64,000 nt of DNA from an uncultured Methylococcaceae bacterium (GTDB taxonomy: Bacteria; Pseudomonadota; Gammaproteobacteria; Methylococcales; Methylococcaceae). Numbering within the stretch: the stretch's first letter is position 1; every line of letters begins with the position of its first letter. This document shows positions 12,954 through 57,928 of the stretch, piece by piece. The stretch lies in assembly GCA_903930145.1 (NCBI GenBank), contig CAIYXP010000300.1:768-64767 (forward strand), written 5' to 3'. Below the pieces are notes generated by a model, which saw only the letters and a list, made by a program, of their open reading frames with translations, was not told the origin of the DNA and did no database searches. The translations under genes and the position numbers were made by a program.

Positions 12954-13805
12954 ATGAGTACTATTGCAGTCATCGGGGCAGGTGTCATGGGGGCGGATGT
13001 CACCCTCAATTTAGCAGCATTCGGCCATTCGGTCATCCTTAAGGATATTGATAAGGGTGTTTTACAAGCATTCAAGGATTCGATTCCCCGGCAGCTTCGC
13101 GGTTACCGCATGTTGGGGTGGATACCGGAGCATGGTTCGGCGGCTGAAGTGGGAGCGCACATCCACCTCACGGATGGCTACGATGGAATCGCGGATGCCG
13201 ACTGGGTCGTTGAAAACGTTACGGAAGACTGGGATACGAAGAAAAGTGTGTATCAAGACTTAGGCAGAATTTGTAAGCCAGAGGTATATTTCGCCGTGAA
13301 CACAAGTTGCATACCAATTACTAAAATTGCTGCTCTGATGCCATGTCCTGACCACGTGGTTGGGGCGCACTTTATGAATCCTGTGCCTCTCATGAAAATT
13401 GTGGAGGTTGTGAGGGGGTATCACACGTCGGATGAAACCTTGGATCAAATGAAAAGGCTGTTGTCATCAATTGGCAAGACAGGGATTGTCGTCAAGGATT
13501 CTGCCGGATTTGTTTCCAACCGACTGTCGCATTTGTTTATGAACGAGGCCGCTTTTCTGGTGCAAGACGGTATCGCCAAGCCCGTCGAGATAGATGCCAT
13601 TTTCAAACAGGGTTATGGGCACAAGATGGGCCCGCTTGAGACCGCCGACCTGATCGGTTTGGATACCGTGGTGAAGTCTTTAGACGTTTTGTATCAATAC
13701 TACCAAGATACCAAGTTTCGTTGTTGCCCACTGTTACGCCAAATGGTTGACGCTGGAGACATAGGCAAAAAAAGTGGAAGGGGGTTTTATGAATACCGCG
13801 CTTAA
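12954..13805 (+). CDS. 3-hydroxyacyl-CoA dehydrogenase family protein (FkbK/ZmaG/Asm13-like)
   Basis: N-terminal Rossmann motif IAVIGAGVMGADV, 3HCDH N- and C-domain signatures (NTSCIPIT, GFVSNRL, GPLETADLIGLD), and its context next to FkbH, ACP and ACAD genes. Confidence 0.9.
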   Translation: MSTIAVIGAGVMGADVTLNLAAFGHSVILKDIDKGVLQAFKDSIPRQLRGYRMLGWIPEHGSAAEVGAHIHLTDGYDGIADADWVVENVTEDWDTKKSVYQDLGRICKPEVYFAVNTSCIPITKIAALMPCPDHVVGAHFMNPVPLMKIVEVVRGYHTSDETLDQMKRLLSSIGKTGIVVKDSAGFVSNRLSHLFMNEAAFLVQDGIAKPVEIDAIFKQGYGHKMGPLETADLIGLDTVVKSLDVLYQYYQDTKFRCCPLLRQMVDAGDIGKKSGRGFYEYRA

Positions 13806-14886
13806 CAATAATGCAAATTTTGATGAAGTAATCCATATTGAATCGGATGCCAAGCTTTTTACCAAAATCGTAAAATGTGTGATTTGGGATTTAGACAATA
13901 CGATTTGGGATGGAATCCTTGTGGAGGGGGACGATGTCCGCTTAAAGCCAGGAATACCGGAAATCCTATCGATTCTGGATTCGCGTGGCATCCTGCACTC
14001 GGTGGCAAGCAAGAACAACTACGACGATGCCATGTCAAAGTTGAAGACGTTCGGCATAGACCATTACTTCCTGTTTCCTCAAATCGGCTGGGATGCCAAA
14101 TCCTTTGGCATTGCGAAAATTCAGAAGGATCTGAATATCGGCATGGATAGCTTGCTGTTCATTGACGACCAGATGTTTGAAGTTGATGAGGTAGCGACAG
14201 CCCATCCTGCAATTAATTGGATAGTGGCTGAAAAATACCAAGGATTACCATCCGACCCAAGGCTTAACCCGAAAGTGGTGGCGGAGGATGCGCACCTACG
14301 ACGGCTTCGTTATCTCGAAGCCATGGTTCGGCAACGGGATGAGGAGGAATTTAACGGAACACCAGAAGAGTTCCTCGTTAGCTTGGACATGAAATTTAGA
14401 ATTGCCACAGCAACCCATGCCGACCTTTTACGCGCAGAGGAACTCACAGTGCGCACGAATCAGCTCAATTCCACCGGGATCACTTATAGTTTCTCGGAAT
14501 TGGCGGCTTACATCAGATCGGAAAGCCACCAGCTTTTGATATGCGAACTGACCGACAAATATGGTTCCTATGGAAAGATTGGGTTGGTTTTGGTGGAAAG
14601 GCAAGCGCGCTGTGACAGGATCAAGCTCCTGTTGATGTCGTGTCGCACGGTGTCCAGAGGGCTTGGGGGGGTGCTCCTCACCTACCTGATGCAGCAGGCG
14701 GCACGGGATGGCAAAGAACTCCTTGCGGATTTCCGGCGAACCGAGCGTAACCGCCAGATGCTCGTCACTTACCAGTTTGGTAATTTCCGGGAGGTTGAAA
14801 GGACTCCCGAAGGACTGATTGTCTTTGCGAACAACCTTGACATTATCCCGGACTACCCCCCCTATATTCAGGTTTTCCTGGACTGA
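13789..14886 (+). CDS. FkbH-like HAD-superfamily (IIIC) glyceryl-ACP-forming enzyme
   Basis: HAD motif I in the FkbH context: VKCVIWDLDNTIWDG. Downstream FIDD motif. The size of about 365 aa is typical. The ATG at 13789 overlaps the upstream gene by 17 nt. Confidence 0.85.
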   Translation: MNTALNNNANFDEVIHIESDAKLFTKIVKCVIWDLDNTIWDGILVEGDDVRLKPGIPEILSILDSRGILHSVASKNNYDDAMSKLKTFGIDHYFLFPQIGWDAKSFGIAKIQKDLNIGMDSLLFIDDQMFEVDEVATAHPAINWIVAEKYQGLPSDPRLNPKVVAEDAHLRRLRYLEAMVRQRDEEEFNGTPEEFLVSLDMKFRIATATHADLLRAEELTVRTNQLNSTGITYSFSELAAYIRSESHQLLICELTDKYGSYGKIGLVLVERQARCDRIKLLLMSCRTVSRGLGGVLLTYLMQQAARDGKELLADFRRTERNRQMLVTYQFGNFREVERTPEGLIVFANNLDIIPDYPPYIQVFLD

Positions 14887-14936
14887 CGGGCAAGGCGTTG
14901 AGGCGACCAGGCAATAATTTAGTGCAATCAAAATGA

Positions 14937-15218
14937 GTGATGACTATGCCGGAACAAGAAGAGCAGCTTTGGCGTACCCAGCTTCGCGAATTTATCGAAG
15001 CCAATATGAACACAGTCGATGACGATGTGGTGCTACGCGACGACGATAATATTTTCGCCAATCGCTATGTGGATTCGATTTTCTCCATGCGCTTGCTCAA
15101 CTTTGTTGAAGCTATAAGCGGCATCATCGTAGCTGATGAGGATATCGTGCTAGCGAATTTCAGCTCGATTGACGCGATGCTTGCATTGATCAGCAGGCAT
15201 CGCGGGGCAGGCCAGTGA
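14937..15218 (+). CDS. Discrete acyl carrier protein (FkbJ/ZmaD-like)
   Basis: A small acidic protein of about 90 aa with a carrier-protein Ser motif (YVDSIFSMRLL), placed between the FkbH-like and acyl-CoA-dehydrogenase-like genes. The start is uncertain (GTG 14937, ATG 14940 or ATG 14946). Confidence 0.75.
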   Translation: MMTMPEQEEQLWRTQLREFIEANMNTVDDDVVLRDDDNIFANRYVDSIFSMRLLNFVEAISGIIVADEDIVLANFSSIDAMLALISRHRGAGQ

Positions 15219-16381
15219 TGACGACTCAGACTATCCACCCTTTGGTTGCATCCGCCAGGGCATTTGCGGAAGAAACCTTGCGTCCACGTGCTGGCGAATT
15301 TGATCAGCAAGAATGCGTTCCTCGTGATGTTCTTCATGAACTGGCGGAGCGCGGCCTGCTCGGTGCAATATTGCCGCGGGAATTTGGTGGCGGCGGCTTG
15401 GATCCGCTTTCCTATGGCCTACTCACAGCCGAGATCGGCAAGGGGTGCAGTTCGACGAGAGCTCTTCTGACGGTGCATGCCAGCTTGGTGGGGGAAACCT
15501 TGGCGAGGATGGGATCGTCGGACCAAAAGCGGCGATGGCTTCCAGACATGGCTGCGGGGAGGAGGCTGGCTTGTTTTGCGCTTTCGGAGCCAGACATCGG
15601 TTCAGAGGCGACCGCAGTCAAGACTAGCTACCGGGCGCAGGGCGGCGAGTTCGTGATCAACGGACAGAAGAAATGGATCACCTACGGTGCGATTGCCGAT
15701 TTGTTTTTGGTGTTCGCTGCCAGCGAGGGCGAGATCAGCGCCTTCATTGTGGATCGCACGATGGAGGGATTGTCGACCAAGCCTATGTCCGGTTTGCTGG
15801 CTAGTCGTGGCGCCCACCTTGCCGAAGTGAAGTTCGATAATGTGGTGGTTCCGAAGGAGAACCTGATTGGTCGGCTAGGCACCGGCTTCACATTCGTTGG
15901 TAACACGGCTCTGTTCTATGGACGTTACAGTGTTGCTTGGGCAGGAGTTGCTATAGCCGAGGCGGCAGTCGAGGAGATGGTGGAATATGCGAGAAACCGG
16001 CAGCAGTTCGGCAAAAAACTGCGGCAGCACCAAATGGTGCAATCGCTCATCGCAGGGGCCGTGGCCAAGCTCCATGCAGGGCGAGCGTTATGCGAGAAGG
16101 TTGGGCAGTTACGTAACCAAGGGGACGACGCAGCCGTGATGGAGGCTAACATCGCTAAATATGTAACATCGAAACTGGCTATGGAGGTGACCTTGACTGC
16201 CGTCCAGGTCTTTGGCGGAAACGGCTGCTGGAATGCCTACCCAGTCGAGCGTCTTTTCAGGGAGGCAAAGATATTAGAGATCATTGAGGGTTCCTCGCAA
16301 ATCCAAGAAATGCTCATTTCCGAACATGCGATTCGCCATTACAGGCGGAGGCAGCATCGTCCGTCGTTCGCCAATGTTTAA
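15218..16381 (+). CDS. Acyl-CoA dehydrogenase family protein (FkbI/ZmaE/Asm15-like)
   Basis: Full-length ACAD fold motifs (CFALSEPDIGSEA, GQKKWITYG, QFGKKL..HQMVQ, QVFGGNG, EIIEGSSQIQ). TGATG stop/start overlap with the ACP gene at 15216-15220. Confidence 0.9.
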   Translation: MTTQTIHPLVASARAFAEETLRPRAGEFDQQECVPRDVLHELAERGLLGAILPREFGGGGLDPLSYGLLTAEIGKGCSSTRALLTVHASLVGETLARMGSSDQKRRWLPDMAAGRRLACFALSEPDIGSEATAVKTSYRAQGGEFVINGQKKWITYGAIADLFLVFAASEGEISAFIVDRTMEGLSTKPMSGLLASRGAHLAEVKFDNVVVPKENLIGRLGTGFTFVGNTALFYGRYSVAWAGVAIAEAAVEEMVEYARNRQQFGKKLRQHQMVQSLIAGAVAKLHAGRALCEKVGQLRNQGDDAAVMEANIAKYVTSKLAMEVTLTAVQVFGGNGCWNAYPVERLFREAKILEIIEGSSQIQEMLISEHAIRHYRRRQHRPSFANV

Positions 16382-16398: not shown

Positions 16399-19300
16399 AT
16401 GCTTATGAACATGTACCAGACTTTGCTTGAATGCTTGAATGCGAGTGCACAGGGCGGGAAGGGTATCCGCTTCATCACGGGTGTGGGGCAAGAAGAGTTC
16501 CTCGCCTACCGGCAGCTTAGAGACGACGCTTTAGGTCGGCTCGCGGGGTTGCGCAAACTCGGAATTCAAGTGGGTGACGAATTGGTTTTCCAATATGCCA
16601 GCCTGAGGGAGTTCATGATCACCTACTGGGCATGTATCGCGGGTGCAATCATACCGGTTCCCTTGGAATTCGCCAGCCAAGCCACCAATGCGGAAAAGGT
16701 TTTCACGGTATGGAAAACCCTCAACAACGCCTGGCTGGCTTCGGATTCCGCCAACCTTGCCGATAGGTTAGAAGCTTTTGCGGCGCAGACTGAGTGGGCG
16801 GAGCAATGGGCGCAGATGCGTGGTCGCCTTGTCTTTCCAACCGATGTGGCCGGTGCTTCGGGAGATTGCCGACCAGCCGATGCAACCCCTTCTGACATCG
16901 CTTTCATCCAGTTTTCGTCTGGTTCCACCAGCGCCCCCAAAGGTGTCGTACTCACCCATGCGAACTTACTGGCAAATATCGACGATATACTTGCCGCAGT
17001 GGACTATACCGAAGCTGACACCTTCCTAAGCTGGAAACCCATCACCCACGATTTTGGCATGATCGCGTTCCACTTGGCGCCCATCGTCGCCGGGAGTGAT
17101 CAAATTCGCATTGCCACCGAAGTGTTCATCTGGAACCCCTCCTTGTGGTTTGCGGCGGCAGACAAGTATCGTGCGTCAATTCTGGGATCGCCGAATTTTG
17201 GCTATCGCCACTTCCTGAAACTTTATCGGAAAGGCAAGAAGAAGCCCTCTTGGGATCTTTCCTGTATCAAAGTCATCCTAAACGGTGCCGAACCAATTTC
17301 CGCCGAACTTTGCGAAGAATTTAGGCGGGAATTGGCCTGTTTTGGGTTGCCACCGCATTGCATCACACCGGGCTACGGGTTGGCGGAAGGTTCGCTGATT
17401 GCCTCGTTATGCCCAATAGACGAGGGTATCCGCACCATGACCGTTGACCGGCATCACCTCCGTGTGGGTGATCGGCTACAGCCAGTGGAGCCGGGATCGC
17501 CTCAGTCCATCACTTTTGTAGACTGTGGCCTGCCCTTCCCGAAGACTGATATCCGTATCACCGGCAAAGGCCGCTTGCCTTTGCCGGAAGATCAAGTCGG
17601 ACACATCGAAATCCGCGGCGATGCGGTTACCTCGGGTTATTACCGCGATCCGCAATCGACGGCAGCCCTGATTGGACCGGGCGGGTGGTTGGATACCCAA
17701 GACCTCGGAGTGCTTAGAGAAGGGCGTTTGTTCGTAGTCGGACGGGTCAAAGAGATGCTCATCATCGGCGGCATCAATTATTTCCCCCATGATATAGAAC
17801 AAGCGATACTGCGGGCTAGGGGCGAGGATCATCTTAACAAATACATTGTTTGCGGTGTCTACAACTCTGAGCAGGGAAGGGAGGAGCCGGTGATCTTTGT
17901 ATACGCCAAGCACACCGGGGAGGGTTTTGCTGCCCTTGCCGCCGAACTGCGGCAGGTAGTCATGGCGACGTTTGCCCTGCCCGTGGTCAATGTCGTCCCG
18001 GTCAAGAAAATCCCCAAGACGACGAGCGGTAAAGTGCAACGGTTCAAGCTAGTCCAAGATTACTTGGACGGTAAGTTCGACGAGGCACTGAATGATGTCG
18101 GGGAAGTCCGCGCCATTCGCATGGCCATAGCCAATATAGAGCTACCTGTAAGCTACACAGATGCTCCGGCGCAAACTGAAGACGGTATCATAGTCCGCAC
18201 CCGTCGTATCGCCGCCCGGCTTTTAGGTCACCCCGACATTGATCAGGATAGCGGTTTTTTCGACCTTGGCTTCTCTTCGCTTTCGCTGATGGTTTTGCGG
18301 GAAAGGCTAGAGGAGGAATTCGGCGTTTCTTTAGAGAGCACCAGTCCGCTTGATTTTCCTAATGTTCGCAGCCTAGCGGCCCACATTGCCCTTCATTTGG
18401 CGGTCGGCGCGCACCCTGCTCCTGTGCGGACATCCTTGCAGGAATCTCTTTTGCCTGAGGCGACCCACCATGAGCCCGTCGCAATCATCGGCATGGGTTG
18501 CCGCTTTCCTGGCGGTGCCGATTCCCCTGAGTCTTTCTGGAATTTGCTCAATTCTGGGATTGATCCAATCGGCGAAATGCCGCCGGACCGCTGGCAATCC
18601 GATCCCCAGGCGCACGCGGATTTGACCACGCGGCAAGGCGGTTTTTTGGATGCCGTGGATCGCTTTGATCCGTTGTTCTTTGGTATTTCTCCGACCGAGG
18701 CCGAAGCGATGGATCCGCAGCAACGTTTGCTGCTGGAAGTCTGCCACGAAACCATTGAGAACGCTGGCCTTAATTCATCGGAACTGGCAGGTTCGAGAAC
18801 CGGCGTGTTCATCGGGATGTCTGGCAGCGAATATGCCGCTGTCGGCAAGGATATGGGGCATTTCACTGGCCCCTACAGCTTCACTGGCACTATGTTTAAC
18901 ACCGCCTGCGGCCGAATTTCCTACACCTTCGGTTTCCAAGGCCCTTGTGTCGCAATAGACACCGCCTGTTCCTCGTCCTTGGTGGCGGTAAATCAAGGGC
19001 TGCACGAATTGCGGTCGAATACGTGCGACCTTGTGGTGGCGGGTGGCGTCAACCTGATTTTAAGAGCGGATGGTCATGTGAGTTTTTCTCAACTAAATGC
19101 CTTATCTTCGACCGGTCGTTGCCGCAGTTTCGACGAGTCCGCCGATGGCTACATTCGCAGCGAGGGTTGTGGCCTTGTTCTGCTCAAACGCCTGAGTGAT
19201 GCGAAGAGGGACGAGGATACCATCCTTGCCGTCATCAGGGGCGGGGCGGTCAACCATAATGGAAAGTCGGGGGGGTTGACAGTCCCAAACGGCTCAGCAC

Positions 19301-22300
19301 AAGAAGCCTTGATTCTCCAAGCTTTGGCGGACGCCGATATTGGGCCTGCTGAGGTGGACTATGTGGAAGCGCATGGTTCTGGAACAAGGCTGGGCGATCC
19401 GCAGGAACTCAACGCGCTTGCGCGGGTTTTCTCAGCCCGCAATGCGCCTTTGCGCGTGGGCAGTGTAAAGTCCAACCTAGGCCATCTTGAAAGTGCTGCG
19501 GGTATCGCAGGCCTCATCAAGCTGGTGCTTTGCCTGCGCCACCAGGCGTTTGCGCCAAACCTACACTTCCGACACCCAAACAGTCTGATTGATTGGGAAA
19601 AAGCCCTTCTCCTCCCGGTTACCGCCCCGCTGGCTTGGGCTGCCGAAGGCAAAACGCGAACGGCAGGCATAAGCTCCTTCGGTATCAGCGGTACCAATGC
19701 GCATCTTCTGCTACAGGAATACCCATGCCCCGTCAAACAGGCAGAGGCAGGTCGAGCTCAGGGTTCTTTTGTTTTCACCCTAAGCGCCAAATCCCCAGAG
19801 GGTCTGCGACTCTCAGCCTTGAAGTTTGCCAATTATCCGAAGTTGGAGACATTGCGTTTTGCTGATTTGTGCCGGACAGTAAACCGTTTGCGTGTTTCGC
19901 ACTCAAACCGCTGGGCCTGTAGCGCAGCCAACGCGGAAGATCTGCGGCAAAAATTGCTCCGGTTTGCAAACCATGCCGATCGGGTTGAAACTGACGGCGA
20001 CATGTGCCCCAGTCGCAAAATTGTGTTTCTCTATACCGGGCAGGGTTCTTACTATCCAGGCATGGGCGAGGCGCTTTATCGGGACAGCCCTGTGTTCAAA
20101 GATGCCTTTGATCAGTGCGATGCTCTGTTCGCCCCCTTGATTGGCTGTTCGTTGCGAGATTATGTTTATGCGCAACTCCGTCGAAGCTCTGATTCTGCTC
20201 AGGCCACCCAGTCGGCCATTTTCGCTGTCGGTTACGCTTTGAGCAGATTTTGGGAAGCGCTCGGCATCCGCCCCAGCGCAGTCATCGGCCACAGCATCGG
20301 CGAATACGCCGCTGCCTGTGAGTCGGGCATAATGAGTCTTGAAAATGCCGTGCAGATGGTTGCCTTGCGCGGAGCGATCATGGAGCAAACCCCGGCTGAC
20401 GGCGCAATGACGGGAATCCTTTCTGACGAAGCCATCGTCCGCAAGCTGTGCGAGGATTGCGGTGGCGGTGTCTATCTCGCAGCCATCAATGGGGATGAAA
20501 ACATCACTGTGTCCGGGCAAAAAGAAAGCGTGGCACGGTTGGTCGCAAGTGCCAAGAAAGCGCGTATCTTCACGGAAGCCTTGCCCATGTCTCACGCCTT
20601 CCATTCGCCGCTGATGGGAGCGAGCGCGGGTAAATTGAAGGATGGCTTGGCGGGAATTCGGTTTAGCGACCCCAAAATTCCTTTGATTTCCACTCAGAGC
20701 GGGCGGGTCTTGTCCTCAGCGGATGAGGCTGGGGCCGACTATTGGAGCGCCCACCTGTGCAACACAGTCCGCTTCAAGGACGCGATGCTGCTCGCATTGG
20801 GCACGGATGCAGCGACCTTTTTGGAAATTGGTGGCACGGCTACACTCAGTGGGTTGGGTGCCCAGATCGGGCGAGGGGATCAGCTTGCGTTTTTGCCTTC
20901 ACTCCGTGAGGGTAGGGATGCTTGGGAGCAGGTGAGCCAGAGCCTTGCCGTGCTATTCCGGCGTGGCTATTCGATCAACTGGGATGCCTACCACAATGGA
21001 GTGTCCTCGTTTATCACAGACTTGCCGAACACTGCCTATCAACGCAACCGCTTCTGGTTCTCGGACAATAGCCCTGCTAGACGGTCTCCCGCACCCGTAC
21101 CTCTAACCTTGGCCTACTCCACAGCATCAGAGGCGGCGGTGTTGTCCGGCGAAGCCACGGCGGCTTCGCCGATGACCTCGGAATCATCGGACTTGCAAGC
21201 CGTCCAACGTGACATCAAAGATATAGTAAGCCGCGTGACGGGCGTCCCGCCGTCGGAGATCGCCGACCAAGCCCATCTTTTCTCCCTCGGCATCGATTCT
21301 CTCATGCTCATGCAGATGGACAAGCAGGTGGTTGCCAAGTATGGCGTCGACATCCCACTCAAGCGATTTTTCACCGATTTGCATACACCTGAGAAGATCG
21401 CCTTGTTCGTCGCAGCGGAAATGCCGGCGGGATTGCGCGCCACCCCATCCACCCCAGCCTTGCTGTCTGCGCCATCGCCCCAGCCTCAGTTGGCTGTGCC
21501 GGGGCAAGCCATAAGCCAACTTGAACATATCGTCCAGACCCAGCTTGAGCTGATGCGGGAACAGATCGCGCTGCTAAACGGTCAGACGACTGCTCACACG
21601 GCCAGCTTGGAGACGAGTAAGGTGGCGGCAAAGCCTGCCGAGGTGGCGCGCCCAAAGACCAACCTTCGCGACATCACGCTGCACGAGGAGGATGTCACTC
21701 CCAGGCAGAGGGTGTTCATAAACCGTCTCATCCAGCGCGTCAACCAATCAACACCTAAATCGAAAAACTACGCCCAGACCTATCGTCGAGGCTTCGCCGA
21801 CTGGATTGCCAGTTTGAATTTCAGTTTGACCACGAAGGAACTGGTCTATCCCGTCGTCTCTGCCCGTTCCAAAGGCTCCCGCTTCTGGGATATTGACGGT
21901 AACGAATACATTGATACCGCCATCGGTTACGGGGTTTCTTTTTTTGGTAACAACCCAGACTTCATCGCCGAAGCGATCCAGGCTCAGCTTGGCCAAGGCA
22001 TCGAACTCGGCCCACAATCAGATTTGGTTGGCGAAGTCGCAGAGCGTATCCGCCGCCTGACTGGGGTGGAGCGGGTGGCCTTTTGCAACACAGGAACCGA
22101 GGCGGTCATGGTAGCCATCCGGCTGGCCCGTGCTGTCACCCGTCGCCTTAAGATCGTGCGTTTCATTACGTCTTTCCACGGTAGTTTCGATGGGGTGCTG
22201 GCGGAAGCAGGCGATGGCGGAACCGTACCAATGGCTCCCGGCATTCCACAGTCTATGGTCGAGGACACCGTCGTCCTGCATTACGGCAGTCCAGAATCCT

Positions 22301-26871: not shown

Positions 26872-27474
26872 ATGCGAGATGAAACCATTCAGATCCAGTG
26901 GTACTACCAAGGCAAGCCCGATTACAACTTTGGCCCAGGCGCGACGCTCGCCGAACGGGGGTTGGTGTGGCTGGCGATGGCGGTTGGGATCGGGTTATAC
27001 GCTTATTTCTACTTTCAAGCGGCCTACCCTTGGCAGCACTGGCAGTATGCCCTCGGTGCATTTTTTGGCTTGGATGTCGTCGGCGGGGTTGTCGCCTTCA
27101 GCCTGAATTCCAACAAACGCTTCTATCACGGCCCGGCCATGAAGGACGATTCGGTGGTGACACGATGCTTGAAGCAGCATCCGCTTTTCGCCGCGATCCA
27201 TATCCATCCAATGCTGGTCGGATTCCTTTATCCTGGCGGTCAATCGATAGCGGGTGTGGGCTGGTATCTTGCTCTGTTGGCAAGCACGGTCTTGGTGTCC
27301 GCCACGCCCCTTTACTTGCGGCGTCCCTTAGCCATGCTATTGGTTTTGCTGTCATTGCTGGCAAATTATGGGATTAGCCCTGTACCCGGTTTTGAGTGGC
27401 TGATGCCAGGACTGTTCTTAAAGATCGTCTATGGCCATACGGTGCGTGAAGAGCCTTATCGTCCTTTGGCTTGA
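26872..27474 (+). CDS. Hypothetical polytopic inner-membrane protein (about 200 aa, about 5 TM), unknown family
   Basis: The ORF has a purine-rich SD-like stretch about 8 nt upstream. Strongly hydrophobic segments (LVWLAMAVGIGLYAYFYF, ALGAFFGLDVVGGVVAF, GWYLALLASTVLVSA, LAMLLVLLSLLANYG). It is co-directional inside the cluster. I recognise no motif. Confidence 0.6.
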   Translation: MRDETIQIQWYYQGKPDYNFGPGATLAERGLVWLAMAVGIGLYAYFYFQAAYPWQHWQYALGAFFGLDVVGGVVAFSLNSNKRFYHGPAMKDDSVVTRCLKQHPLFAAIHIHPMLVGFLYPGGQSIAGVGWYLALLASTVLVSATPLYLRRPLAMLLVLLSLLANYGISPVPGFEWLMPGLFLKIVYGHTVREEPYRPLA

Positions 27475-27547
27475 TGAGTAGGCCGATTTGCGATGATTGC
27501 AGCAGACGGTCATTTTGTTCAACTTGATACAAGGGGTAAATGATCTG

Positions 27548-28816: not shown

Positions 28817-28831
28817 TAGAGGAGTTTGGGC

Positions 28832-45287: not shown

Positions 45288-45346
45288 ACCAAGCCGACCC
45301 GCTGACAGTGGGTCGGCAAGCTGCCCGCCAGGAAACGAGTGAGAAT

Positions 45347-48300: not shown

Positions 48301-48574
48301 CATTAGCGAAATTGGGGTCTATGACAATTTTTTTGATGTCGGGGCCAATTCCCTCAACCTCATCACCATCAATAACCGCCTAAGGGATGCCTTTGCCAAG
48401 GACATTCCCGTCACGGCGCTGTTCGAGCACACCAGCGTGGCGCAGTTGGCTGAATACATTGGTGCGGACGCGGAACGCGAGCAGGAGAAGATCGAGCGTG
48501 AAAACGAAGAATTGGAACAGGCCAAAGGCGTGTTGCTGAAAACCAGAAACCTGATGCGGAACCTAGACGAGTAA
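45347..48574 (+). CDS. NRPS module C(DCL-like)-A(Val-like)-PCP
   Basis: N-terminus NIQDIYGLAPMQEGML. C motif HHIILDGWC (from 45776). A-domain motifs SGSTGRPKA, NGYGPTENT, YRTGDVARW, KIRGFRVELGEIE, NGKVDRR. PCP Ser 48350-48352. TAATG stop/start overlap with the next gene at 48572-48576. Confidence 0.95.
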   Translation: MLSKENIQDIYGLAPMQEGMLIHYARDATTEAYVEQFSFVIEGEIDYPVLQKSLDALVIKYDVLRTIFSFRKTDLPRQVVLKARRPQLLCEDYSVYEPQAAEDAVEEFKRRDKAKGFDLSKDILLRVSLLKVGGQRHHMIMTFHHIILDGWCMGLIFQDLFAFYDRISANPLLEPKDREAYSYRQFIAWVGEQDKAAAAQYWSHYLEGYQAEVGPPYFDLRHDGQTEHAVHIFSLGQEISEGLESLAKSRLLTVSSVFQTAWGILLQKYQNTDDVVFGSVVSGRPASLPGVESMVGLFINTQPLRVACSSGESFGSVAARVQQGSFQSVGYEYYPLFEIQSKSALKNRLLNHIVAFENYPLSEQLRQFGESSQGLRITDVKVFEQTNYDFNVIVYPGRDIGVNFTYNRKRYDDACIAGLERGLHHLLAQIVEDPDAPVSSLGICSPLDSALILNTYNATATDYPSCRSLLELFVETASARPDAAALRYRNKVFSYLELQQHAMAVGGELRERGIGFGSTVALMTPNRPEMVVAILAILSCGAAYVPIEPGTVPDRVKFLLEDSGASLVCTLAPYAESFPPDVAVHILNLSHDSPAKPLEPWHQPVDSSVAAYVMYTSGSTGRPKACVVSHRNIVRLVRGTDYVEFGSAHRILQTGSPAFDASTFEIWGALLNGAELCQADEADILDPARLRPLLQDMHITMLWLTSALFNQHCEADPGMFRPLRYLLVGGDVLSPRHIDRARTANPGLKIINGYGPTENTTFSTTFPVERAYETRIPIGRPIKNSTAYVLDVGLNLLPPGAYGELCVGGDGVASRYLNRPELSAEKFIDDPFRPGGRLYRTGDVARWLPDGTLDLLGRTDFQVKIRGFRVELGEIERTLCTLPGVIEVVVIVRDGLGGKQLCAYHVSDRDIANQDLRSGLATRLPGYMVPAFYLRLDRLPLTANGKVDRRALPPIDIGVTSSQGFTEPRNVTELRIAGICEEVLGISEIGVYDNFFDVGANSLNLITINNRLRDAFAKDIPVTALFEHTSVAQLAEYIGADAEREQEKIERENEELEQAKGVLLKTRNLMRNLDE

Positions 48575-51500: not shown

Positions 51501-54500
51501 AATGAATTTTGGAGAATTATTGGATTACCGGCGGCTGGCTAGGTTCTTGAAGCATGGCGATGGCGTGCCTGGACTGCTGATCTGGGTGGTCGACGGGGGC
51601 GACCTGAAATTGTCCGACGAATTCACTGGGCCTTTGCTTCGTCTCGCCATCGCTTTGCGAGATGAATGCCCCGGTCAGGCGTTCCGTTGCATCGTTTTGA
51701 TCCCCGGCGGCACCCCGCAACGATTCCAGAACCACCCAGACGAGGGTTTCGAGCCCGATGGCTTGGCGCGAGGACTGCGTGCCGCTTGCCTCAATTTCGA
51801 TGTACGCTGTGTCGGGTTTGATCAAGCATGCAGTGAAGAGTCCTTGGGGGAACTGGTAGGTAGAGAAATCTTCGACTCAGATCAATCTATTAGCCTTACG
51901 GCCTATCAAGGCAATCAACGCTGGGTGTACCGCCCCCAGCCGGGGTTTGCTGCCGCATCCCATCCGTCCAACCGTTTTCGCGGTCAAAATCTGGGTCTGC
52001 TTGCCCCCGACACCTTTCCGCTGGACGAATTGGCCGCCCTAATCGGAGAGTCTAGCGGAGCCCGCATCCTGCCGCTGACGTGGAAGGTGCCGCAGGCACC
52101 GGTTTCTGCTCAGTCTGCGATTGATGCGGACACCGCCTCGCTGAGCGGATATTTGCGCAAAATCCAAATGACCTATCTTGCACAATATGGACTGGAGGAT
52201 TTTGGACATTGCCATGCGCTAATGGACGAACTATCCACCGCCTTGGTTGCCGATTATATCCACACGCAAATGCCCTTGGTTCCGGGGCAACGCTTTGACA
52301 GGGAGGGCTTGAAGCAGAGTTTGCGGATTGTTCCGCACCAAGAAAAATACCTCGACTACTTTATCGACATGCTCGCCGAAGACGGACTGATCGTCGCCAG
52401 GGGCGAGGCTTACGAAATATTGCATGGACCCGGTTCCTTGCGGCCAATTGGCAAGATCAAACAGGAACTGGAATCGGCAAGCCCTTTGTTTTCCGGGCAG
52501 GTAAGATTGTTGGAGCATTGTGTGACCGCTTTTGACAAGGCGCTGCCCGGAGCGATACCCTCCATCGAAGTGCTTTACCCGGAAGGTCGCAACGAACTAT
52601 TGCGCGCCACCTATGAAGGATCGATCCAAGAAAAGGAGGACGAGTACATACGGATGATGTTCGAGAAATTAAGCGGCAAAATCATCCAAGACGCCCGTGG
52701 CAAGCGCTTGCGCATTCTTGAGGTCGGCGGAGGTTACGGCAACGTGATGCGTCGTATCGTTCCCTTGCTGCGCGACGCCGATGTAGAGTACTACTTCACC
52801 GACATTGGCAAGACTTTCTTGGAAGACGCGAAATCCTTTGCCATAGAAGAAGGCTATCGCTTTCTGCGCTTCGGCGTGCTTGACATTACCCAAGACTCCA
52901 TCGAACAGGGGTTGGAGACAAACGCCTTCGATGTGGTGTTTGCTTTCAACGTCGTCCACGCTACCCGCAATCTTGGCATCACCCTCGGTAATATGCAGCG
53001 CTTGCTCAAACCAGGGGGCGTGTTGGGGTTGTTGGAACGCACCAAGGTTCGGCGTTATGTCGATTTAATCTGGGGCTTAGCGGATGGCTGGTGGCATTTC
53101 GACGAACCGGAACGCTCTAGGTCTCCACTCTTAGATTTAGGGCGATGGGAAGAAACCATCCGCCGGCTTGGCTTCACGGAGGTGATGACCTATCCCGATA
53201 CACAGGAAATCCGCGACCGGTTGGATGTGGGCCTGTTAATCGCCAGAAATGAAATGATAGCGGTGAACCTAACCGCGAAAACTCCCTCCATCCCGGCCAA
53301 GGAAGTGGGTTGGCAGCTTTCCATGCCGGTATGCTTAGATCTGATTGACGGGTTATTGTTGATCGAACCAACCCCTGTTCGCCCCGAGTCCAATTTCCCG
53401 TCCATCGGCGGCGACCCTGCCGACCCTTGCCATGACTACGCAGGATATGTAGAGGCTATGATTGCTTGGCTTGGTGCGCATCGACCCGGCTTCGTCAGCG
53501 TTTGGTCCTCTGGCTCTGCGGCGGCGCATCCATCGGATGAAATGGCCCGAATCAAGGCTGCTGCACAGCTTGATACGTGGGGTGGCTGGCTACTTGGCAA
53601 CAGCGGTTCGTGGTCCCGAGTCTATCTCCCGCTGGATGTTGGCGAGTCTGCCCTTCTAACGCATTCCGTCATCTGCGAAGCATTGCGCGCCATCGAAAGC
53701 GGCTTGGCTCATGCCGTGATCCATCCCGAGCGGCAGGACTCGTTCTCGCCCCCCCGTCAGGATGCGTATGCATGGCGTGCCACAGCCAAGGATAACCAGA
53801 AACATGAAAGCCTTCCCGAAGACGAAGGCTTTACTCCAGATGTGCCGAAAGACGGGTGCATCCGCCTACTACAAACGCTGTGGAGCGAATTGTTTGGTTT
53901 GGAAAAGATTGGCTTGGACGACGACTTTTTCGCGCTCGGCGGAGATTCCCTCAAGGTCGCGCAGTTGACGACCGAGCTTGAGAAGCATGGAATCCGCCTA
54001 CTATCTAACGAGGTGTTCGCCCGTCCGACTATCCGCAGCCTTGCCGAATACATTTTGACCCAGCGCATTGACGAGCACGACAGGGTGCAGACACCCGAAG
54101 ATATCGTCAGGCATTATCGGGAAAACCTCAGGCTTGATGCCGCCTACCAGACCTACGAGTTGGATGGGCAGGAATATCGGATTCTCTTCGTGGAAGACAG
54201 CGCACTCGCCGGCGGCGGCAAACCGGAACAGTCGATGGACAACCTCAAAGTGTTGGCACGAATCCAACCCCATTATATATTGCCATTGTCCTGTTTCTCC
54301 GGCATCTCTGCCAGCGGGGAGACTGATAGTTTCTGGGGCGCTATAGGCATTACCGAAAATGCAGGGCCTGAAATCATCGAATCACTCGCACAACAGGCAG
54401 CCAGCCAAATGGCGGAAGCCAACCGCGCCATCTGCGCTGGCCCGGTCGATGCCCGCTATACCCTTACACCGTTCCAGAAAATGTATCAGAAGGAGTCACA

Positions 54501-55740
54501 GCTCGCCCTATACCTCATTGAAATGGATGAGACCTTAGACTTGAAATTACTTGACCAAGCATTTACAGCCCTCGTCAAAACCCAAGGCTTGTTCAGGACA
54601 GAATTGCGTCGGCGGCTAGGAAGGGCCAAATGGGTGGAACACGCGCCGCCCGATAATCTAAGTATCCCTTTGATGGATTTGTCCGGCTATAGCCCTGTCG
54701 TACAAGCCCAGTTATTCGAGCGGATCATGGCCTTAGAATACGGACTGGACTTGCCTAGGGAAGCTGGAATACGCTTCAGAGTGCAACTGATTATTTTCAA
54801 CCGTCGCCGCTATACGCTCATGTTTAACGTGGATCACGCCATTTTTGACAACATGAGTGGACAGATTTTGCGCAACCAGTTCATCGGTCATTATCGTGCC
54901 CTGCTTTCAGGGAAGATTGCCGGGTTAAGCCCAGTCAAAAGCTATCGTCAATACTTGGAGCAACGGCGCGAAGGGCCTCAAGGTATTAATGAAAAACGCC
55001 TCATCCAACGGTTTGACTTGGAACGTTACGGGAAGGCAAGGGACGCTGTTGAACAACGCATCCTTGCGCATCGACAGAAAAACATCGGCAGATGCCGTTA
55101 TTCGCTGAATCTGACACAGTTCCAATTGGCAGACGACGACGAAGCCACTTGGGAACTGAGCATGATAGTCCTGTGCTTAGTATTGGAGAGGTTCCTTGGA
55201 CAAAAGGAGATTCCTTTAAAGCTTCTTTACCAAGGCCGAAAATACCAAGACCAGTCCTATTTCGACACCATCGGCCTATTCATCGACGTAGTTCCGCTGA
55301 TGCTGCAAGTTGATCGCGACAATCCGACAGCCATGATCAATGGGATCAGAGCAAAGCTTCAGTTGCTCAAACAACACAATATAAGCTTCACCAATCTACT
55401 GTTTAATCCATTGATGTGGCTAAAATGGGGCAATGTGATCTCGTTGACGGGATCAAAGAAATTGTCAAGACGCGACCCCATGATACTGTTGAATTATGTG
55501 GGAAAGGCCGAGAAGGAGTATCAGAAGATCATCGAATTTGCATCGGAAAACTTGGAAAATTTAGGCGGAAAGATGGATTACGCGAGTTTTTACAGCATTG
55601 TCACCGTTGTGGACGGTCATATCAATTTCGATGTCTTTTGCAGCTTCGAACGAAATATGGATGTCTTGTTGCGTTTGTTTGAGGAGGAGGCTCGCTACTT
55701 GGCGGTCGGTGGGCTAGGCGGCGGAAATGACCGTCAATGA
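48574..55740 (+). CDS. Terminal PKS: KS-AT-(structural KR-like region)-methyltransferase-(degenerate KR-like region)-ACP-terminal condensation-like domain
   Basis: - KS: Cys 49114-49116 (HCACSTS), HGTGT, NIGH.
- AT: Ser 50464-50466 (GHSLGE), HAFH 50746-50757.
- SAM-MT motif I: LEVGGGYG, 52717-52740.
- ACP: Ser 53947-53949.
- C-like domain: DHAIFDN at 54832-54852 in place of HHxxxDG. Confidence 0.93.
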   Translation: MKIQTTRTGLEIAVIGLSGRFPGALNLAEFWGNLVSGTNSISLLSDEELRGAGVHPELIAQKNFVKAKGIFPDLEYFDADFFEYTPRDAALMDPQVRALHQGVYHALEDAGYASEQYKGSIGLFLGASGNFLWEMSTFLEAKDSGSAQFATLQLNDKDFVATRIAYKLNLRGPSVAIHCACSTSLYAIDVACRNLLTGSCSMAVCGGSGLTLPVRNGYLYETGMIKSADGSCRPFSDDANGTVEGNGMGLVVLKPLEDALRDRDRVYAVIRATAANNDGARKVGYNAPSVEGQAEVIRRALHIADVQPESVTYVEAHGTGTALGDPVEVEGLKKAFRSDETGFCGIGSLKSNIGHLDTAAGISSFIKTVLALEKRLIPPSIHFRDANPNIDFSHSPFYVITEATPWENQPAPGRPDHVLPLRAGVSSFGIGGTNVHVVLEEAPAQPESDNGREWKLLCLSARDEAALGRLQNAVAEFVNSNPGMNVADLAYTFHSGRRSLPVRAVLAYRDVQDLQGALGNQVSPLPYFKAPQAPVRMAFLFSGQGTQYPGMGIGLYSSEPAFKEQVDRCLEICDSLDLPEIRQLLLEPTESDADLVKQTEFAQPGLFIVEYALARLLMDWGIVPTAMIGHSLGEYVAACIAGVFSLERALDLVVRRGRLMGYMSPGSMLAVSAPEAGLALPAGIDLAAVNSPFQCTVSGPTEAIEAYENDLREQSIGTRRLQTSHAFHSAMMEPALESFMQVVSAMRLDAPKIPYLSNVSGTWITAEQAQDPAYYVRHLRETVRFAEGAKRILEDTGLVFAELGPGNVLCTFLKQNSAVTHAVPTVSLMRHGKATETDAQHLVHGLGTLWGFGVAPDWKRYYRPQQRFKLNAPLYPFERRHFPVGERDIYSLLAQSNTTPTAHSLALAAERRTLLNTLGWQASALPPAVESSAVEPCLLFGRNSRAGKTVSLVEGLRLIQVRAGMTFTKRGYAEYQMNFGELLDYRRLARFLKHGDGVPGLLIWVVDGGDLKLSDEFTGPLLRLAIALRDECPGQAFRCIVLIPGGTPQRFQNHPDEGFEPDGLARGLRAACLNFDVRCVGFDQACSEESLGELVGREIFDSDQSISLTAYQGNQRWVYRPQPGFAAASHPSNRFRGQNLGLLAPDTFPLDELAALIGESSGARILPLTWKVPQAPVSAQSAIDADTASLSGYLRKIQMTYLAQYGLEDFGHCHALMDELSTALVADYIHTQMPLVPGQRFDREGLKQSLRIVPHQEKYLDYFIDMLAEDGLIVARGEAYEILHGPGSLRPIGKIKQELESASPLFSGQVRLLEHCVTAFDKALPGAIPSIEVLYPEGRNELLRATYEGSIQEKEDEYIRMMFEKLSGKIIQDARGKRLRILEVGGGYGNVMRRIVPLLRDADVEYYFTDIGKTFLEDAKSFAIEEGYRFLRFGVLDITQDSIEQGLETNAFDVVFAFNVVHATRNLGITLGNMQRLLKPGGVLGLLERTKVRRYVDLIWGLADGWWHFDEPERSRSPLLDLGRWEETIRRLGFTEVMTYPDTQEIRDRLDVGLLIARNEMIAVNLTAKTPSIPAKEVGWQLSMPVCLDLIDGLLLIEPTPVRPESNFPSIGGDPADPCHDYAGYVEAMIAWLGAHRPGFVSVWSSGSAAAHPSDEMARIKAAAQLDTWGGWLLGNSGSWSRVYLPLDVGESALLTHSVICEALRAIESGLAHAVIHPERQDSFSPPRQDAYAWRATAKDNQKHESLPEDEGFTPDVPKDGCIRLLQTLWSELFGLEKIGLDDDFFALGGDSLKVAQLTTELEKHGIRLLSNEVFARPTIRSLAEYILTQRIDEHDRVQTPEDIVRHYRENLRLDAAYQTYELDGQEYRILFVEDSALAGGGKPEQSMDNLKVLARIQPHYILPLSCFSGISASGETDSFWGAIGITENAGPEIIESLAQQAASQMAEANRAICAGPVDARYTLTPFQKMYQKESQLALYLIEMDETLDLKLLDQAFTALVKTQGLFRTELRRRLGRAKWVEHAPPDNLSIPLMDLSGYSPVVQAQLFERIMALEYGLDLPREAGIRFRVQLIIFNRRRYTLMFNVDHAIFDNMSGQILRNQFIGHYRALLSGKIAGLSPVKSYRQYLEQRREGPQGINEKRLIQRFDLERYGKARDAVEQRILAHRQKNIGRCRYSLNLTQFQLADDDEATWELSMIVLCLVLERFLGQKEIPLKLLYQGRKYQDQSYFDTIGLFIDVVPLMLQVDRDNPTAMINGIRAKLQLLKQHNISFTNLLFNPLMWLKWGNVISLTGSKKLSRRDPMILLNYVGKAEKEYQKIIEFASENLENLGGKMDYASFYSIVTVVDGHINFDVFCSFERNMDVLLRLFEEEARYLAVGGLGGGNDRQ

Positions 55741-55771: not shown

Positions 55772-57100
55772 ATGAAACTGTTTTGGCTAAAACCCAGTTT
55801 ACGTAAAATAAGCGATTTATTCGCTATCCTGTCTATTTGCCTTGCCGTGAACATCGCCCAGGCATTTCCGCCTGTTGATGCTGTTGAAAAAAAGTGGTAC
55901 TCGGGCATCAAGGTGGACGGCAGCTTGCAGACTACACTCGGTATCGACGAACCCAATGTGGGTTCAATATTCGCATCCAAAGACACTCGTTCACAAGTGG
56001 ATTTTTCCACCCGTCGGTTCAACGCCCTGTTAAGGGTACGGCAGCCTGGGAAATTCCTCGCCTTGTTCGATGGCATGTTGGAAAACGACCAAGACACCGG
56101 ACAAGATCTGCACCAAGGCTTGGTCAACCAGCTTTACCTTGCTTACGATGTTACCGATGTGCTGCGGGTCAGGGTTGGGAAACAGCGTACATTATGGGGC
56201 CATGGTTTTGCATACATACCGACGGATTTCATCAACCCACCCCTTGACCCCACTGCATTGAACTTGATAAGACCCGGGGTGAAGGCGATTTCCTTCGACT
56301 ACTCTTTTTCAAAATTCACATTGTCGGGAATTTTGACGAAGGACAGTGGCAAAGTGATTGGTGGAGAAGGCTTAAAATTGACCAGCAGCGCCATCTCCGG
56401 GTTGGATTTTTATTTGATCTATTACCATTCTGATATTGTCGGTCATGCCGGCGGGGCTTCGTTCGCTGTGGATCCCTCTGTAATATGGTTCCCGAAATGG
56501 CCTAGCTTTGTTATTTACGGATCACTTGGAATCAACGAAAAATCGCGCTACCCGGAAGTCCTGAATGCCACATACACCGTCAATGGCAGTAATTTATACT
56601 ACCCTGCCGTAGGTCCGACCGGCAAAACGGGCCCTTATCTGTCATTTCTAGCGGCGATGAGTTACGAGTTCGTCAAGGCGAGGCTTAGCCTGTCCGCCGA
56701 ATATTACTATATAGGCGATGCCTACCCGCCGGGTGACCGAGATAAAATCATGAATGCATTGTCTAGCCCCAATATTTACGTGAGTCAACCCAGTTCACTT
56801 TGGCTCAACAACCTAACCGCCTTTGGCAGGAACCAACAGCAATATCTTTCGCTTTCTCTAAGCCATCGTTCAGTTACGGAAGGCGTGAATCACTTCCTTG
56901 ACACTTTCGGTTATGAACTTGGGCTGTTGCAAGGGTTGAACGATTCTTCTAACTTTATGACTGCCGCGATAAAATCCAATTATTGGAGCAACACGGAGAT
57001 AACCCTTCGTTCTTTCCAGCCGTTTGGAAATAGCAAATCCGAGTTCGGGTCTATGCCATTCAATTGGAATCTCCAATTGCTGGTCAAAGTGGGATTTTAG
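55772..57100 (+). CDS. Putative outer-membrane beta-barrel protein (unknown family)
   Basis: Signal peptide ending AVNIAQA. Alternating amphipathic beta-strand pattern, aromatic-rich, with a C-terminal ...LLVKVGF ending in Phe as in OMP beta-signals. I could not place the family by eye. Confidence 0.6.
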   Translation: MKLFWLKPSLRKISDLFAILSICLAVNIAQAFPPVDAVEKKWYSGIKVDGSLQTTLGIDEPNVGSIFASKDTRSQVDFSTRRFNALLRVRQPGKFLALFDGMLENDQDTGQDLHQGLVNQLYLAYDVTDVLRVRVGKQRTLWGHGFAYIPTDFINPPLDPTALNLIRPGVKAISFDYSFSKFTLSGILTKDSGKVIGGEGLKLTSSAISGLDFYLIYYHSDIVGHAGGASFAVDPSVIWFPKWPSFVIYGSLGINEKSRYPEVLNATYTVNGSNLYYPAVGPTGKTGPYLSFLAAMSYEFVKARLSLSAEYYYIGDAYPPGDRDKIMNALSSPNIYVSQPSSLWLNNLTAFGRNQQQYLSLSLSHRSVTEGVNHFLDTFGYELGLLQGLNDSSNFMTAAIKSNYWSNTEITLRSFQPFGNSKSEFGSMPFNWNLQLLVKVGF

Positions 57101-57145
57101 CCGAATCCCGCAGCAGTTTTTCCTTGCAGCCGACCGGATTCGTGT

Positions 57146-57928
57146 TTGAATCGATGGCGTCTGCTGGGGTGTTGGTGCGTTTCTGTTGTCGAGGTAAGTT
57201 TGGATAAAATATATTTGTTCGCAATACCCTATGCTGGCGGTTCAGCAGCAGTAATTTATGGGAAGTGGGCCCGCTACCTTCAAAAGCACTTCATAGTCAT
57301 GCCTTTGGAAATGGCCGGGCACGGACGGCGCATGAGCGAACAGTTCCACGAAAACATGGATGAAGTGGTTGCCGACCTGTTCAATATGGTTCGCCCCATA
57401 GCTAAAAATCATCCCTATGTCATTTATGGTCATAGCATGGGTTGCATCATCACTTACGAATTGGTCAAAAAATTACAGATTGCCGGCTATCCTCCGCCGC
57501 AAACCATTTTTCTTTCTGGGCGCAATCCGCCTGATCATGCTTACGCAAGTAACTCACTCCATCTTCTAGCGGATAATATATTTCTACAGGAAATCAGAAA
57601 GATAGGTGGGACACCCGATGAATTCTTCGAAATGAAGAGTCTTGTCGATGCATTTCTCCCGATTATCCGTAGCGATTACCGCATTATCGAGCATTATGTA
57701 TTTTCACCGCCCATTCATGTTATGGACACTGATTTGGTTTTCCTCCATAGCGACCAAGATGTTCTTGTAAGCGAGCCGACAATCCATGAATGGCAGCGTT
57801 ATTGCTCGGGACGTTTTGAAGTAGAGAAGTTTCAAGGGGGTCACTTTTTCATTAATGACTATACTGAGACGATTTGCGAACTGATCGGTAGATCACTCTC
57901 TATTCCCTTATCTAAGACGGTATTATGA
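57146..57928 (+). CDS. Type II (editing) thioesterase
   Basis: LFAIPYAGGSA, GHSMGCIITYE, C-terminal GGHFF. The true start may be the TTG at 57200, 5 nt after the GAGG at 57191-57194. Confidence 0.9.
   Translation: MNRWRLLGCWCVSVVEVSLDKIYLFAIPYAGGSAAVIYGKWARYLQKHFIVMPLEMAGHGRRMSEQFHENMDEVVADLFNMVRPIAKNHPYVIYGHSMGCIITYELVKKLQIAGYPPPQTIFLSGRNPPDHAYASNSLHLLADNIFLQEIRKIGGTPDEFFEMKSLVDAFLPIIRSDYRIIEHYVFSPPIHVMDTDLVFLHSDQDVLVSEPTIHEWQRYCSGRFEVEKFQGGHFFINDYTETICELIGRSLSIPLSKTVL

Follow-up and report, generated by a model that had tools for sequence, protein, structure and literature searches.

Gene organization of the cluster

The window analysed here is a 64,000-nt stretch of DNA from an uncultured Methylococcaceae bacterium (GenBank assembly GCA_903930145.1, metagenome contig CAIYXP010000300.1, positions 768 to 64,767), and it carries a large cluster of non-ribosomal peptide synthetase (NRPS) and polyketide synthase (PKS) genes. 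All positions below are those of the window, and all cluster genes lie on the plus strand. From 12954 to 57928, 14 plus-strand open reading frames (ORFs) overlap or are separated by at most 57 nt. This agrees with the first-pass annotation, made from the letters of the sequence, which had described 14 co-directional ORFs with gaps below about 75 nt; the ORF list together with a 93-aa carrier gene accounts for all of them. The two overlapping stop/start codons that it named, TGATG at 15216–15220 and TAATG at 48572–48576, are both exact. Its left border at 12954 is shifted here to 8756, because in relatives the two FtsX-type permease genes, the ABC (ATP-binding cassette) ATPase gene and the LolA-like gene at 8756–12846 move together with the cluster genes. 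Taking assembly, glycolate supply, release and export together, we consider it probable that 8756–57928 is a single biosynthetic gene cluster of ~49 kb, a hybrid of NRPS and mixed cis- and trans-acyltransferase (AT) PKS that belongs to a cross-phylum family and directs synthesis of an N-terminally lipidated peptide-polyketide.

Domains were assigned with Pfam scans of overlapping 600-aa protein pieces and with NCBIfam models at their own cut-offs. The Pfam results reproduce the earlier domain order domain for domain. No thioesterase (TE) is fused to any synthase between 12954 and 57928 in these scans, as had been proposed for a line with no type I TE. The key catalytic residues read earlier from the sequence are present on alignment in the ketosynthase (KS), AT, condensation (C) and adenylation (A) motifs. 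All five KS domains have an intact Cys/His/His triad, with KS2 reading HGTAT and KS5 reading HCACST. GHSxG and HAFH are present in both cis-ATs (AT1 and AT5) and HHxxxDG in the internal C domains; both dehydratase (DH) domains, in ORFs B and C, show HxxxGxxxxP and the downstream Asp motif.

Proposed priming by ORF A

ORF A (16399–26814) encodes a single protein of 3471 aa that contains the entire priming machinery and the first NRPS module. It begins with a fatty acyl-AMP ligase (FAAL, 16480–18078) and an acyl carrier protein (ACP, 18202–18387), which are followed by KS1 (18472–19569), the malonyl-type AT1 (20023–20949), a second ACP (21211–21408), a class-III aminotransferase (21847–22869), a C domain (23134–24426), a Gly-type A domain (24487–25914) and a peptidyl carrier protein (PCP, 26005–26187). 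The FAAL part is recognized in Pfam as AMP-binding plus PP-binding, and its top NCBIfam match is fatty acyl-AMP ligase with 323 bits, under the full-length cut-off of that model. The aminotransferase of the glutamate-1-semialdehyde aminotransferase (GSA) type, embedded between KS-AT-ACP and C-A-PCP, is placed by the Pfam order and by NCBIfam transaminase models. The domain string and these models agree with the earlier suggestion of iturin-style β-amino fatty acid priming. In such a scheme, the FAAL would load a fatty acid onto the ACP, KS1 and AT1 would add malonate, the embedded transaminase would convert the β-keto group to a β-amine, and the C and A domains would add Gly.

The closest named relatives of ORF A are subunit A of mycosubtilin and iturin synthetases (MycA/ItuA) and the CymA-type priming protein of cystomanamide, which have the same FAAL-ACP-KS-AT-ACP-aminotransferase-C-A-PCP string. 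Close ORF A homologues are labeled ‘iturin family lipopeptide synthetase A’ by the Joint Genome Institute (JGI). A Cystobacter fuscus protein, presumably part of the cystomanamide cluster, is 40% identical to ORF A over 94% of its length. The similarity ends after priming. Iturin lines continue with NRPS modules only and close the ring on the β-amine with a type I TE, whereas here PKS modules follow and no TE is fused. Compared with the iturin lines, the present cluster has Gly as its first amino acid; three PKS modules without an AT come next, followed by two NRPS modules, a PKS module with a cis-AT and a C-like end.

The last ~200 aa of ORF A (26188–26811, plus strand) resemble a condensation domain only in its C-terminal portion (Pfam E 8e-4) and have no HHxxxDG. 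The alignment of ORF A with the Saccharophagus degradans locus continues through this remnant, which may serve for docking to the first AT-less KS.

AT-less modules and NRPS modules

ORF B (28826–33631) consists of KS2 (28940–30097), DH (30860–31705), ketoreductase (KR, 32408–32995) and ACP (33317–33505). ORF C (33659–38422) has the same arrangement, with KS3 (33770–34933), DH (35672–36481), KR (37220–37804) and ACP (38111–38299). ORF D (38397–45287) starts with KS4 (38574–39674) and an ACP (40524–40694) and continues as an NRPS module with C (40791–42089), Ile-type A (42156–43583), PCP (43665–43838) and epimerization (E) domain (43896–45242). In ORFs B, C and D, the KS is joined to a KAsynt_C_assoc/RhiE-like linker, and no Acyl_transf_1 domain is found by Pfam. 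The discrete AT gene (27497–28816) lies just upstream of ORF B. Its product scores 303.5 bits with the NCBIfam fabD equivalog (cut-off 260.9) and has motifs GHSLG and GPFHS; the best Protein Data Bank (PDB) matches are FabD, DisD and PksC, and the gene position is conserved in relatives. A look-up of its exact sequence gave no hit, probably owing to a different choice of start codon. A role as a ZmaF/ClbG-like transferase for an ACP-linked unit was rejected, since the protein passes the fabD cut-off and FabD ranks first. The Pfam and fabD results thus bear out the mixed logic proposed before, with two cis-AT modules, three AT-less modules and a discrete trans-acting, malonyl-type AT. The two AT-less KS-DH-KR-ACP modules, served by this AT, would build a 2,4-dienoyl unit from the Gly carbonyl. 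The following KS4-ACP would either add one unreduced C2 unit or merely pass the chain on.

The codes of the three A domains were read by alignment to GrsA, a reference that recovered its own known code. They are DILQLGMVWK in ORF A, DGFFLGVIFK in ORF D and DAFWLGGTFK in ORF E, which we take to match the published codes for Gly, Ile and Val, respectively. The Gly, Ile/Val and Val specificities suggested earlier are thereby retained, with the second one read as Ile. The E domain of ORF D, expected after the Ile/Val module, scores above the cut-off of TIGR01720 and shows the motif HHLVVDV. ORF E (45308–48574) contains a C domain with HHIILDG (45368–46699), a Val-type A domain (46769–48184) and a PCP (48269–48460). 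The C-A-PCP-E of ORF D would thus add and epimerize Ile, and the C-A-PCP of ORF E would add Val.

Between ORF A and the discrete AT lies a gene for a 200-aa polytopic membrane protein with several hydrophobic stretches (26872–27474). It has no family match in Pfam or NCBIfam. A protein 74% identical to it is encoded at the same place in the nearest relative, L020, the only relative that has it; the gene is not in the Massilia, Saccharophagus or Spirillospora loci, and we regard it as a lineage-specific accessory gene. The earlier view that an unknown membrane protein and a type II TE accompany the modules holds for both genes. The stand-alone type II-like TE (57146–57928; Pfam Thioesterase, E 3.8e-40; motif GHSMG) is the last gene of the cluster.

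Glycolate cassette and AT specificity

Four genes upstream of ORF A form one block. A 3-hydroxyacyl-CoA dehydrogenase (3HCDH) homologue of the FkbK/ZmaG type (12954–13805; Pfam 3HCDH_N and 3HCDH, NCBIfam) is followed by an FkbH-like glyceryl-ACP loader (13774–14886), a free-standing 93-aa carrier protein of the FkbJ/ZmaD type (14937–15218) and an acyl-CoA dehydrogenase (ACAD) homologue of the FkbI/ZmaE type with all three Acyl-CoA_dh Pfam domains (15215–16381). The carrier protein was identified by its Ser in YVDSIF, a weak ACP model match and its conserved position inside the cassette. With TIGR01686 at 233 bits (cut-off 147), the ACP and both oxidoreductases, the glycolate-extender cassette recognized in the first-pass annotation is complete. 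The block is the same FkbH/ACP/3HCDH/ACAD set as in FkbGHIJK and in zwittermicin ZmaD/E/G/N. The present cluster differs from these routes in that it has no O-methyltransferase; the sole methyltransferase in it is the in-line C-methyltransferase (C-MT) of ORF F. The extender unit would therefore be hydroxymalonyl. The four proteins would make hydroxymalonyl-ACP, to be used somewhere in the line. Our first guess for its entry is the last module and our second the KS4-ACP module; a third is that it serves as acceptor for the terminal C-like domain.

The closest structure to AT1 is the malonyl AT of CurL. For AT5, the AT of ZmaA (PDB entry 4qbu), which we take to be hydroxymalonyl-specific, ranks first with 255 bits, compared with 199 bits for CurL. 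At the level of residues, ZmaA has GYSFG and GAAHS in places where AT5 has GHSLG and HAFHS, and the HAFH of AT5 is kept in proteobacterial relatives. AT5 is thus overall nearest to the ZmaA AT and differs from it in its motifs, and its assignment as hydroxymalonyl AT was downgraded after this alignment showed malonyl-type motifs. An epoxyketone-type logic, with an ACAD and a C-MT terminal module, was considered and set aside because the ACAD sits in a complete FkbH cassette. In S. degradans, the priming-module AT has QPFHS in place of HAFHS, and no 3HCDH gene was seen beside the cassette; extender logic may vary within the family.

Terminal module and C-like domain

ORF F (48574–55740) is the last synthase. 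It contains KS5 (48604–49722), AT5 (50188–51027), a ~280-aa KR-prefix-like remnant, the C-MT (52222–53226), an ACP (53866–54054), a linker of ~110 aa and a terminal C-like domain (54508–55701). The best structural match of the methyltransferase is the C-MT of CurJ (PDB entry 5thy, E 3.5e-51), followed by the C-MTs of DisA and the citrinin PKS. His and Glu are conserved in it at the positions aligned to CurJ residues that we take to be its catalytic dyad. Given these matches, an O-methyltransferase leading to a methoxy-pyrrolinone was rejected, and the methylated terminal ketide module KS-AT-MT-ACP-C described before stands with a C-methyltransferase. KS5-AT5-cMT-ACP would add a C-methylated, unreduced C2 unit. 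The 280–350 aa between AT5 and the C-MT (51180–52220, plus strand; aa ~870–1215 of ORF F) give only a weak ‘KR prefix domain’ match (E 1e-4) and may be the remnant of a structural KR subdomain.

The terminal C-like domain, called C* below, matches Pfam Condensation with 72.6 bits on the last 488 aa of ORF F, and nothing lies downstream of it in the protein. DHAIFDN replaces HHxxxDG, so that the second His and the Asp are kept and the first His is replaced. The motif FN(L/V)DH(A/S)IFDNMSGQ is invariant in eleven relatives. C* is separated from the preceding ACP by the extra segment of ~110 aa, and its best PDB match has an E-value of only 2.5e-9. Among 1.84 billion representative proteins, a threshold of E ≤ 1e-30 yields 104 clusters of C* homologues and one of E ≤ 1e-10 yields 660; at 50% identity, the clade numbers at least 104 clusters. 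In nearly all of the best 149 homologues, the domain ends 2–100 aa from the C-terminus, and these share the motif (D/S/N/H)HxI(F/Y)Dx. The domains that precede it are A-PCP in 86 of the 149 and KS-AT-(MT)-ACP in 18. The closing position given earlier to a terminal C-like domain is thus found in this protein and in its homologues.

Fungal C_T domains are comparable chain-terminating, condensation-like domains. To our knowledge, no member of the C* clade has been studied. C-terminal C domains have been cited as release catalysts in bacteria as well, for crocacin, FK520 and C-1027 (PMC5640695). C* resembles the fungal and the bacterial release domains in being the last domain and in belonging to the condensation-fold family; it differs in following a PKS ACP through the extra linker and in matching PDB entries only distantly. 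Judged from its sequence and position, C* is quite likely to be the releasing catalyst. As a C-terminal release domain, it would explain the missing type I TE, and the stand-alone TE probably edits.

The nucleophile is much less certain, and we weigh four routes. Attack by the β-amine would give a macrolactam of ~19–21 atoms; this is the likeliest of them, at less than even odds. Aminotransferase-free relatives bear directly on it. In the Janthinobacterium sp. palsa_998 metagenome-assembled genome (MAG) and in Tumebacillus algifaecis, the aminotransferase is missing and the same C* or the same downstream genes are kept, and so the β-amine is not a universal nucleophile. Release by water or an external nucleophile is possible to a slightly lesser degree.

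A five-membered lactam formed by attack of the Val amide nitrogen on the β-keto thioester is unlikely, in our estimate, by a further small step; in this case the product would be linear, with a free β-amine, and would end in an N-acyl 3-methyl pyrrolidine-2,4-dione. The sampled line ends are C-A-PCP followed by unreduced KS-AT-(cMT)-ACP, which is the classic precursor of a pyrrolidine-2,4-dione, and the Val amide nitrogen is available even in relatives without an aminotransferase. There is also a precedent for a C-like cyclase: JamQ, a C-like enzyme, is suggested for closure of an N-acyl pyrrolinone, and for the dolastatin 15 pathway a TE has been proposed instead (PMC13643306). However, the role of JamQ is itself a proposal. 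The domain also follows A-PCP rather than a PKS module in those 86 of 149 clade members, which argues that the clade overall is not one of tetramate cyclases.

The least probable route has the stand-alone TE hydrolyse the chain, with C* either structural or coupling the chain to a nucleophile on the FkbH-loaded carrier, so that the glycerate-derived unit is acceptor rather than extender: every locus sampled in that part, actinomycetes included, has a TE gene with the cluster, none of the ATs has a non-malonyl signature, the FkbH partner is the only free-standing carrier protein in the cluster, and C domains normally need a carrier-bound acceptor, but the size and family of the TE are those of editing type II TEs, C* clade members end many lines, and the cassette has both oxidoreductases that define the hydroxymalonyl route, not FkbH and ACP alone.

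Putative exporter and predicted outer-membrane barrel

The left end of the cluster encodes an FtsX-type ABC permease (permease 1, 8756–10006; Pfam FtsX), a MacB/LolC-like permease 2 with MacB_PCD and FtsX domains (10014–11342), an exporter ABC ATPase (11373–12044; Pfam ABC_tran) and a LolA-like periplasmic carrier (12088–12846; LolA_like, PF17131, E 1.9e-39). Synteny in relatives supports both permeases. Permease 1 travels with the cluster in relative loci L003/L006, L011–L014, L019 and L020 at 45–83% identity, and the ATPase occupies the same position in relatives at 63–92% identity. In every Gram-negative relative, the LolA-like gene adjoins the exporter. The actinomycete loci, in the parts sampled, gave no match to the exporter genes of the window.

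Between ORF F and the TE, a 442-aa protein is encoded (55772–57100) that belongs to a rare unnamed family. Pfam and NCBIfam give no match to it, and its homologues number only 19 among 5.8 billion clusters, all of them without a name. The family has a signal peptide, a C-terminal Phe and an invariant GKQRxLWGxG...DFINPPLDP, which is modelled as a low-confidence loop. The AlphaFold2 (AF2) model, built from the 19-sequence alignment, has a predicted local distance difference test (pLDDT) score of 78 and shows a signal helix followed by an all-β barrel. Foldseek with this model returns AlgE and Occ channels first, with a template modelling (TM) score of ~0.5. On eight contigs, the barrel gene always has as neighbours a thioesterase gene and a PKS gene whose product terminates in MT-ACP-C. 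Four gammaproteobacterial loci (L011–L014), among them that of the isolate Alteromonas sp. a30, share the order PKS, FtsX, FtsX, ABC, LolA-like, barrel, TE. A betaproteobacterial MAG has the exporter genes after the TE and before the FkbH cassette, and Massilia sp. W12 and a 72%-identical relative share the order of the window: FtsX, FtsX, ABC, LolA-like, cassette, ORF A. The protein noted before as an accompanying outer-membrane protein is thus predicted to be an AlgE-like barrel, and it would form the outer-membrane part of a co-inherited Lol-like exporter.

In our reading, these genes may provide a private envelope route for the product, with a MacB/LolCDE-like extractor, a LolA-like carrier and the predicted barrel. 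The FtsX/FtsX/ABC pump would extract the product, the LolA-like carrier would take it, and the AlgE-like barrel would pass it to or through the outer membrane. Two FtsX/MacB_PCD permeases, an ABC ATPase and a LolA-like protein are shared with LolCDE-LolA and MacB pumps, and the predicted monomeric barrel is nearest AlgE/Occ. In contrast to these systems, the present set is dedicated to a secondary-metabolite cluster, has no LolB-like protein and uses a barrel of an unnamed family.

Conservation across phyla

The combination of features is not peculiar to this sequence. The same genes are found in the same order, at 40–72% identity, in cultured and sequenced bacteria of three phyla, so that the window holds one copy of a widespread family and not a unique cluster. 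The genes from the cassette to the TE are kept in order in Massilia sp. W12, S. degradans, Spirillospora albida and several MAGs, and part of them in Streptomyces anulatus. The S. degradans order is FkbH, ACP, ACAD, A, AT, B, C, D, E, F. S. albida has TE, a regulator, 3HCDH, FkbH, ACP, ACAD, A, AT, B, C, and S. anulatus has AT, B, C, D, E, KS-AT-ACP-C (without C-MT) and TE. Full-length homologues of ORF A occur in Massilia sp. W12 (52%), Pleionea, S. degradans, Actinokineospora and Spirillospora. Those of ORF D, at 40–71% identity, occur in S. degradans, Aliikangiella, Pleionea, Tumebacillus, Numidum, Oceanobacillus, Shouchella and Paenibacillus, and among actinomycetes in Micromonospora/Verrucosispora, Saccharothrix, Spirillospora, Streptosporangium and many Streptomyces. 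The Gly code of module 2 is invariant in relatives; the two later A codes vary.

Conservation of each module across the three phyla suggests a product function worth keeping. The newness is that of an apparently unstudied orphan family rather than that of this window, which adds one more family member and a lineage-specific membrane protein but no singular discovery. Orphan hybrid clusters are common; the features of note here are the cross-phylum conservation, the C-like clade, the glycolate unit and the Lol-like exporter with its barrel. If the family is truly unstudied, it offers a defined natural-product target in cultured Massilia sp. W12, S. degradans, Alteromonas sp. a30, S. anulatus, S. 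albida and T. algifaecis. The large bacterial clade of terminal C-like domains may account for release in many TE-less assembly lines, and a cluster-linked Lol-like exporter with an unnamed barrel bears on the envelope transit of lipidic metabolites in Gram-negative bacteria.

Predicted product and relation to known pathways

Product assignment rests on colinearity, and the structure is a prediction from it. The lipidated product, the dienoyl segment, the D-residue and the methylated ketide proposed in the first-pass annotation are consistent with the module order, the A codes, the E domain and the C-MT. Its ‘probably cyclised’ product stays a guess in view of the two relatives that have no aminotransferase and retain the terminal C-like domain or the downstream genes. 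Several points weigh against our overall assignment, in addition to those relatives. The complete triad of KS4 means that a ‘non-elongating’ role is not arguable from its sequence. Assignment of the stereochemical type of the KR domains from pattern-found ‘LDD’ strings was rejected because the strings are not the KR motif. AT1, AT5 and the discrete AT all have malonyl-type motifs, so that no AT can be assigned to the glycolate unit. The envelope route is proposed from synteny and fold.

The family may also have been characterized already, as a cluster orthologous to a published or MIBiG pathway, which we think improbable. The family occurs in the well-studied genera Streptomyces, Micromonospora/Verrucosispora, Saccharothrix and Paenibacillus, which raises the chance of an existing compound link, and the literature search covered open-access text, with subscription papers outside its scope. 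In these open-access full texts, searched for combinations of features and for carrier genera, no paper with this architecture was found, in keeping with the earlier statement that the combination could not be matched to a characterized pathway. The nearest candidate in them, solanimycin, differs in structure and logic and was rejected as the product, being a hexaene with Gly-Dha5. The ~240 best ORF A and ORF D homologues carry no product-specific name, only ‘iturin family lipopeptide synthetase A’ and generic labels, and no PDB chain from this pathway is among the structure matches.

The oxazolomycin line resembles this cluster in several respects: its AT-less KS modules work with a discrete AT, Gly is extended to a conjugated diene, an FkbH cassette and a type II TE are present, and a type I TE is absent. 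It differs in using a second AT reserved for the ACP-linked unit, in having an O-methyltransferase and an oxazole-forming start, and in lacking fatty-acid/transaminase priming.

A bolder proposal, which we put forward as a speculation with the odds against it, is that the lipidated peptide-polyketides made by this family form a class not yet described, which Proteobacteria, Actinobacteria and Firmicutes have retained module by module. The chain would be off-loaded by a bacterial counterpart of C_T acting on a PKS-bound β-keto thioester. Gram-negative members would use a private Lol-like route ending in a new family of outer-membrane barrels, and their product, instead of being a freely secreted antibiotic, would be a specialised lipid of the envelope or surface.

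Genes flanking the cluster

The left edge of the window cuts through the C-terminal end of another synthetase (3–1496, plus strand). It contains two tandem thioesterase-like regions, the first reading GWCFAG, with Cys where Ser is usual, and the next GHSFGG. This points to a separate second NRPS-type cluster directly upstream. It is followed by a row of transport genes (1459–7589, plus strand) for a major facilitator superfamily (MFS) transporter, a MacB-type ABC ATPase and permease, an HlyD-type adaptor and a TolC-like outer-membrane factor. These are probably the exporter of the upstream synthetase and not of the cluster studied here. The upstream ABC gene of the window (ABC1) matches relatives' loci only at their second ABC gene (ABC2), with lower identity, and the other upstream transport genes have no match in the sampled relative loci.

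A phosphopantetheinyl transferase gene was not found in the window; several relatives have one beside the thioesterase or the exporter. Two ORFs at the borders, 7868–8332 (plus strand, 154 aa) and 58186–58728 (plus strand, 180 aa), have no family match. On the minus strand at 58308–63983 lie two genes that match the Hma anti-phage defence system, one the AAA+ ATPase HmaC (E 1.9e-77) and the other the DNA adenine methylase HmaB (E 3.7e-79); the HmaB-like gene seems to continue past the window's right edge. With these matches, a defence locus borders the cluster on the right.

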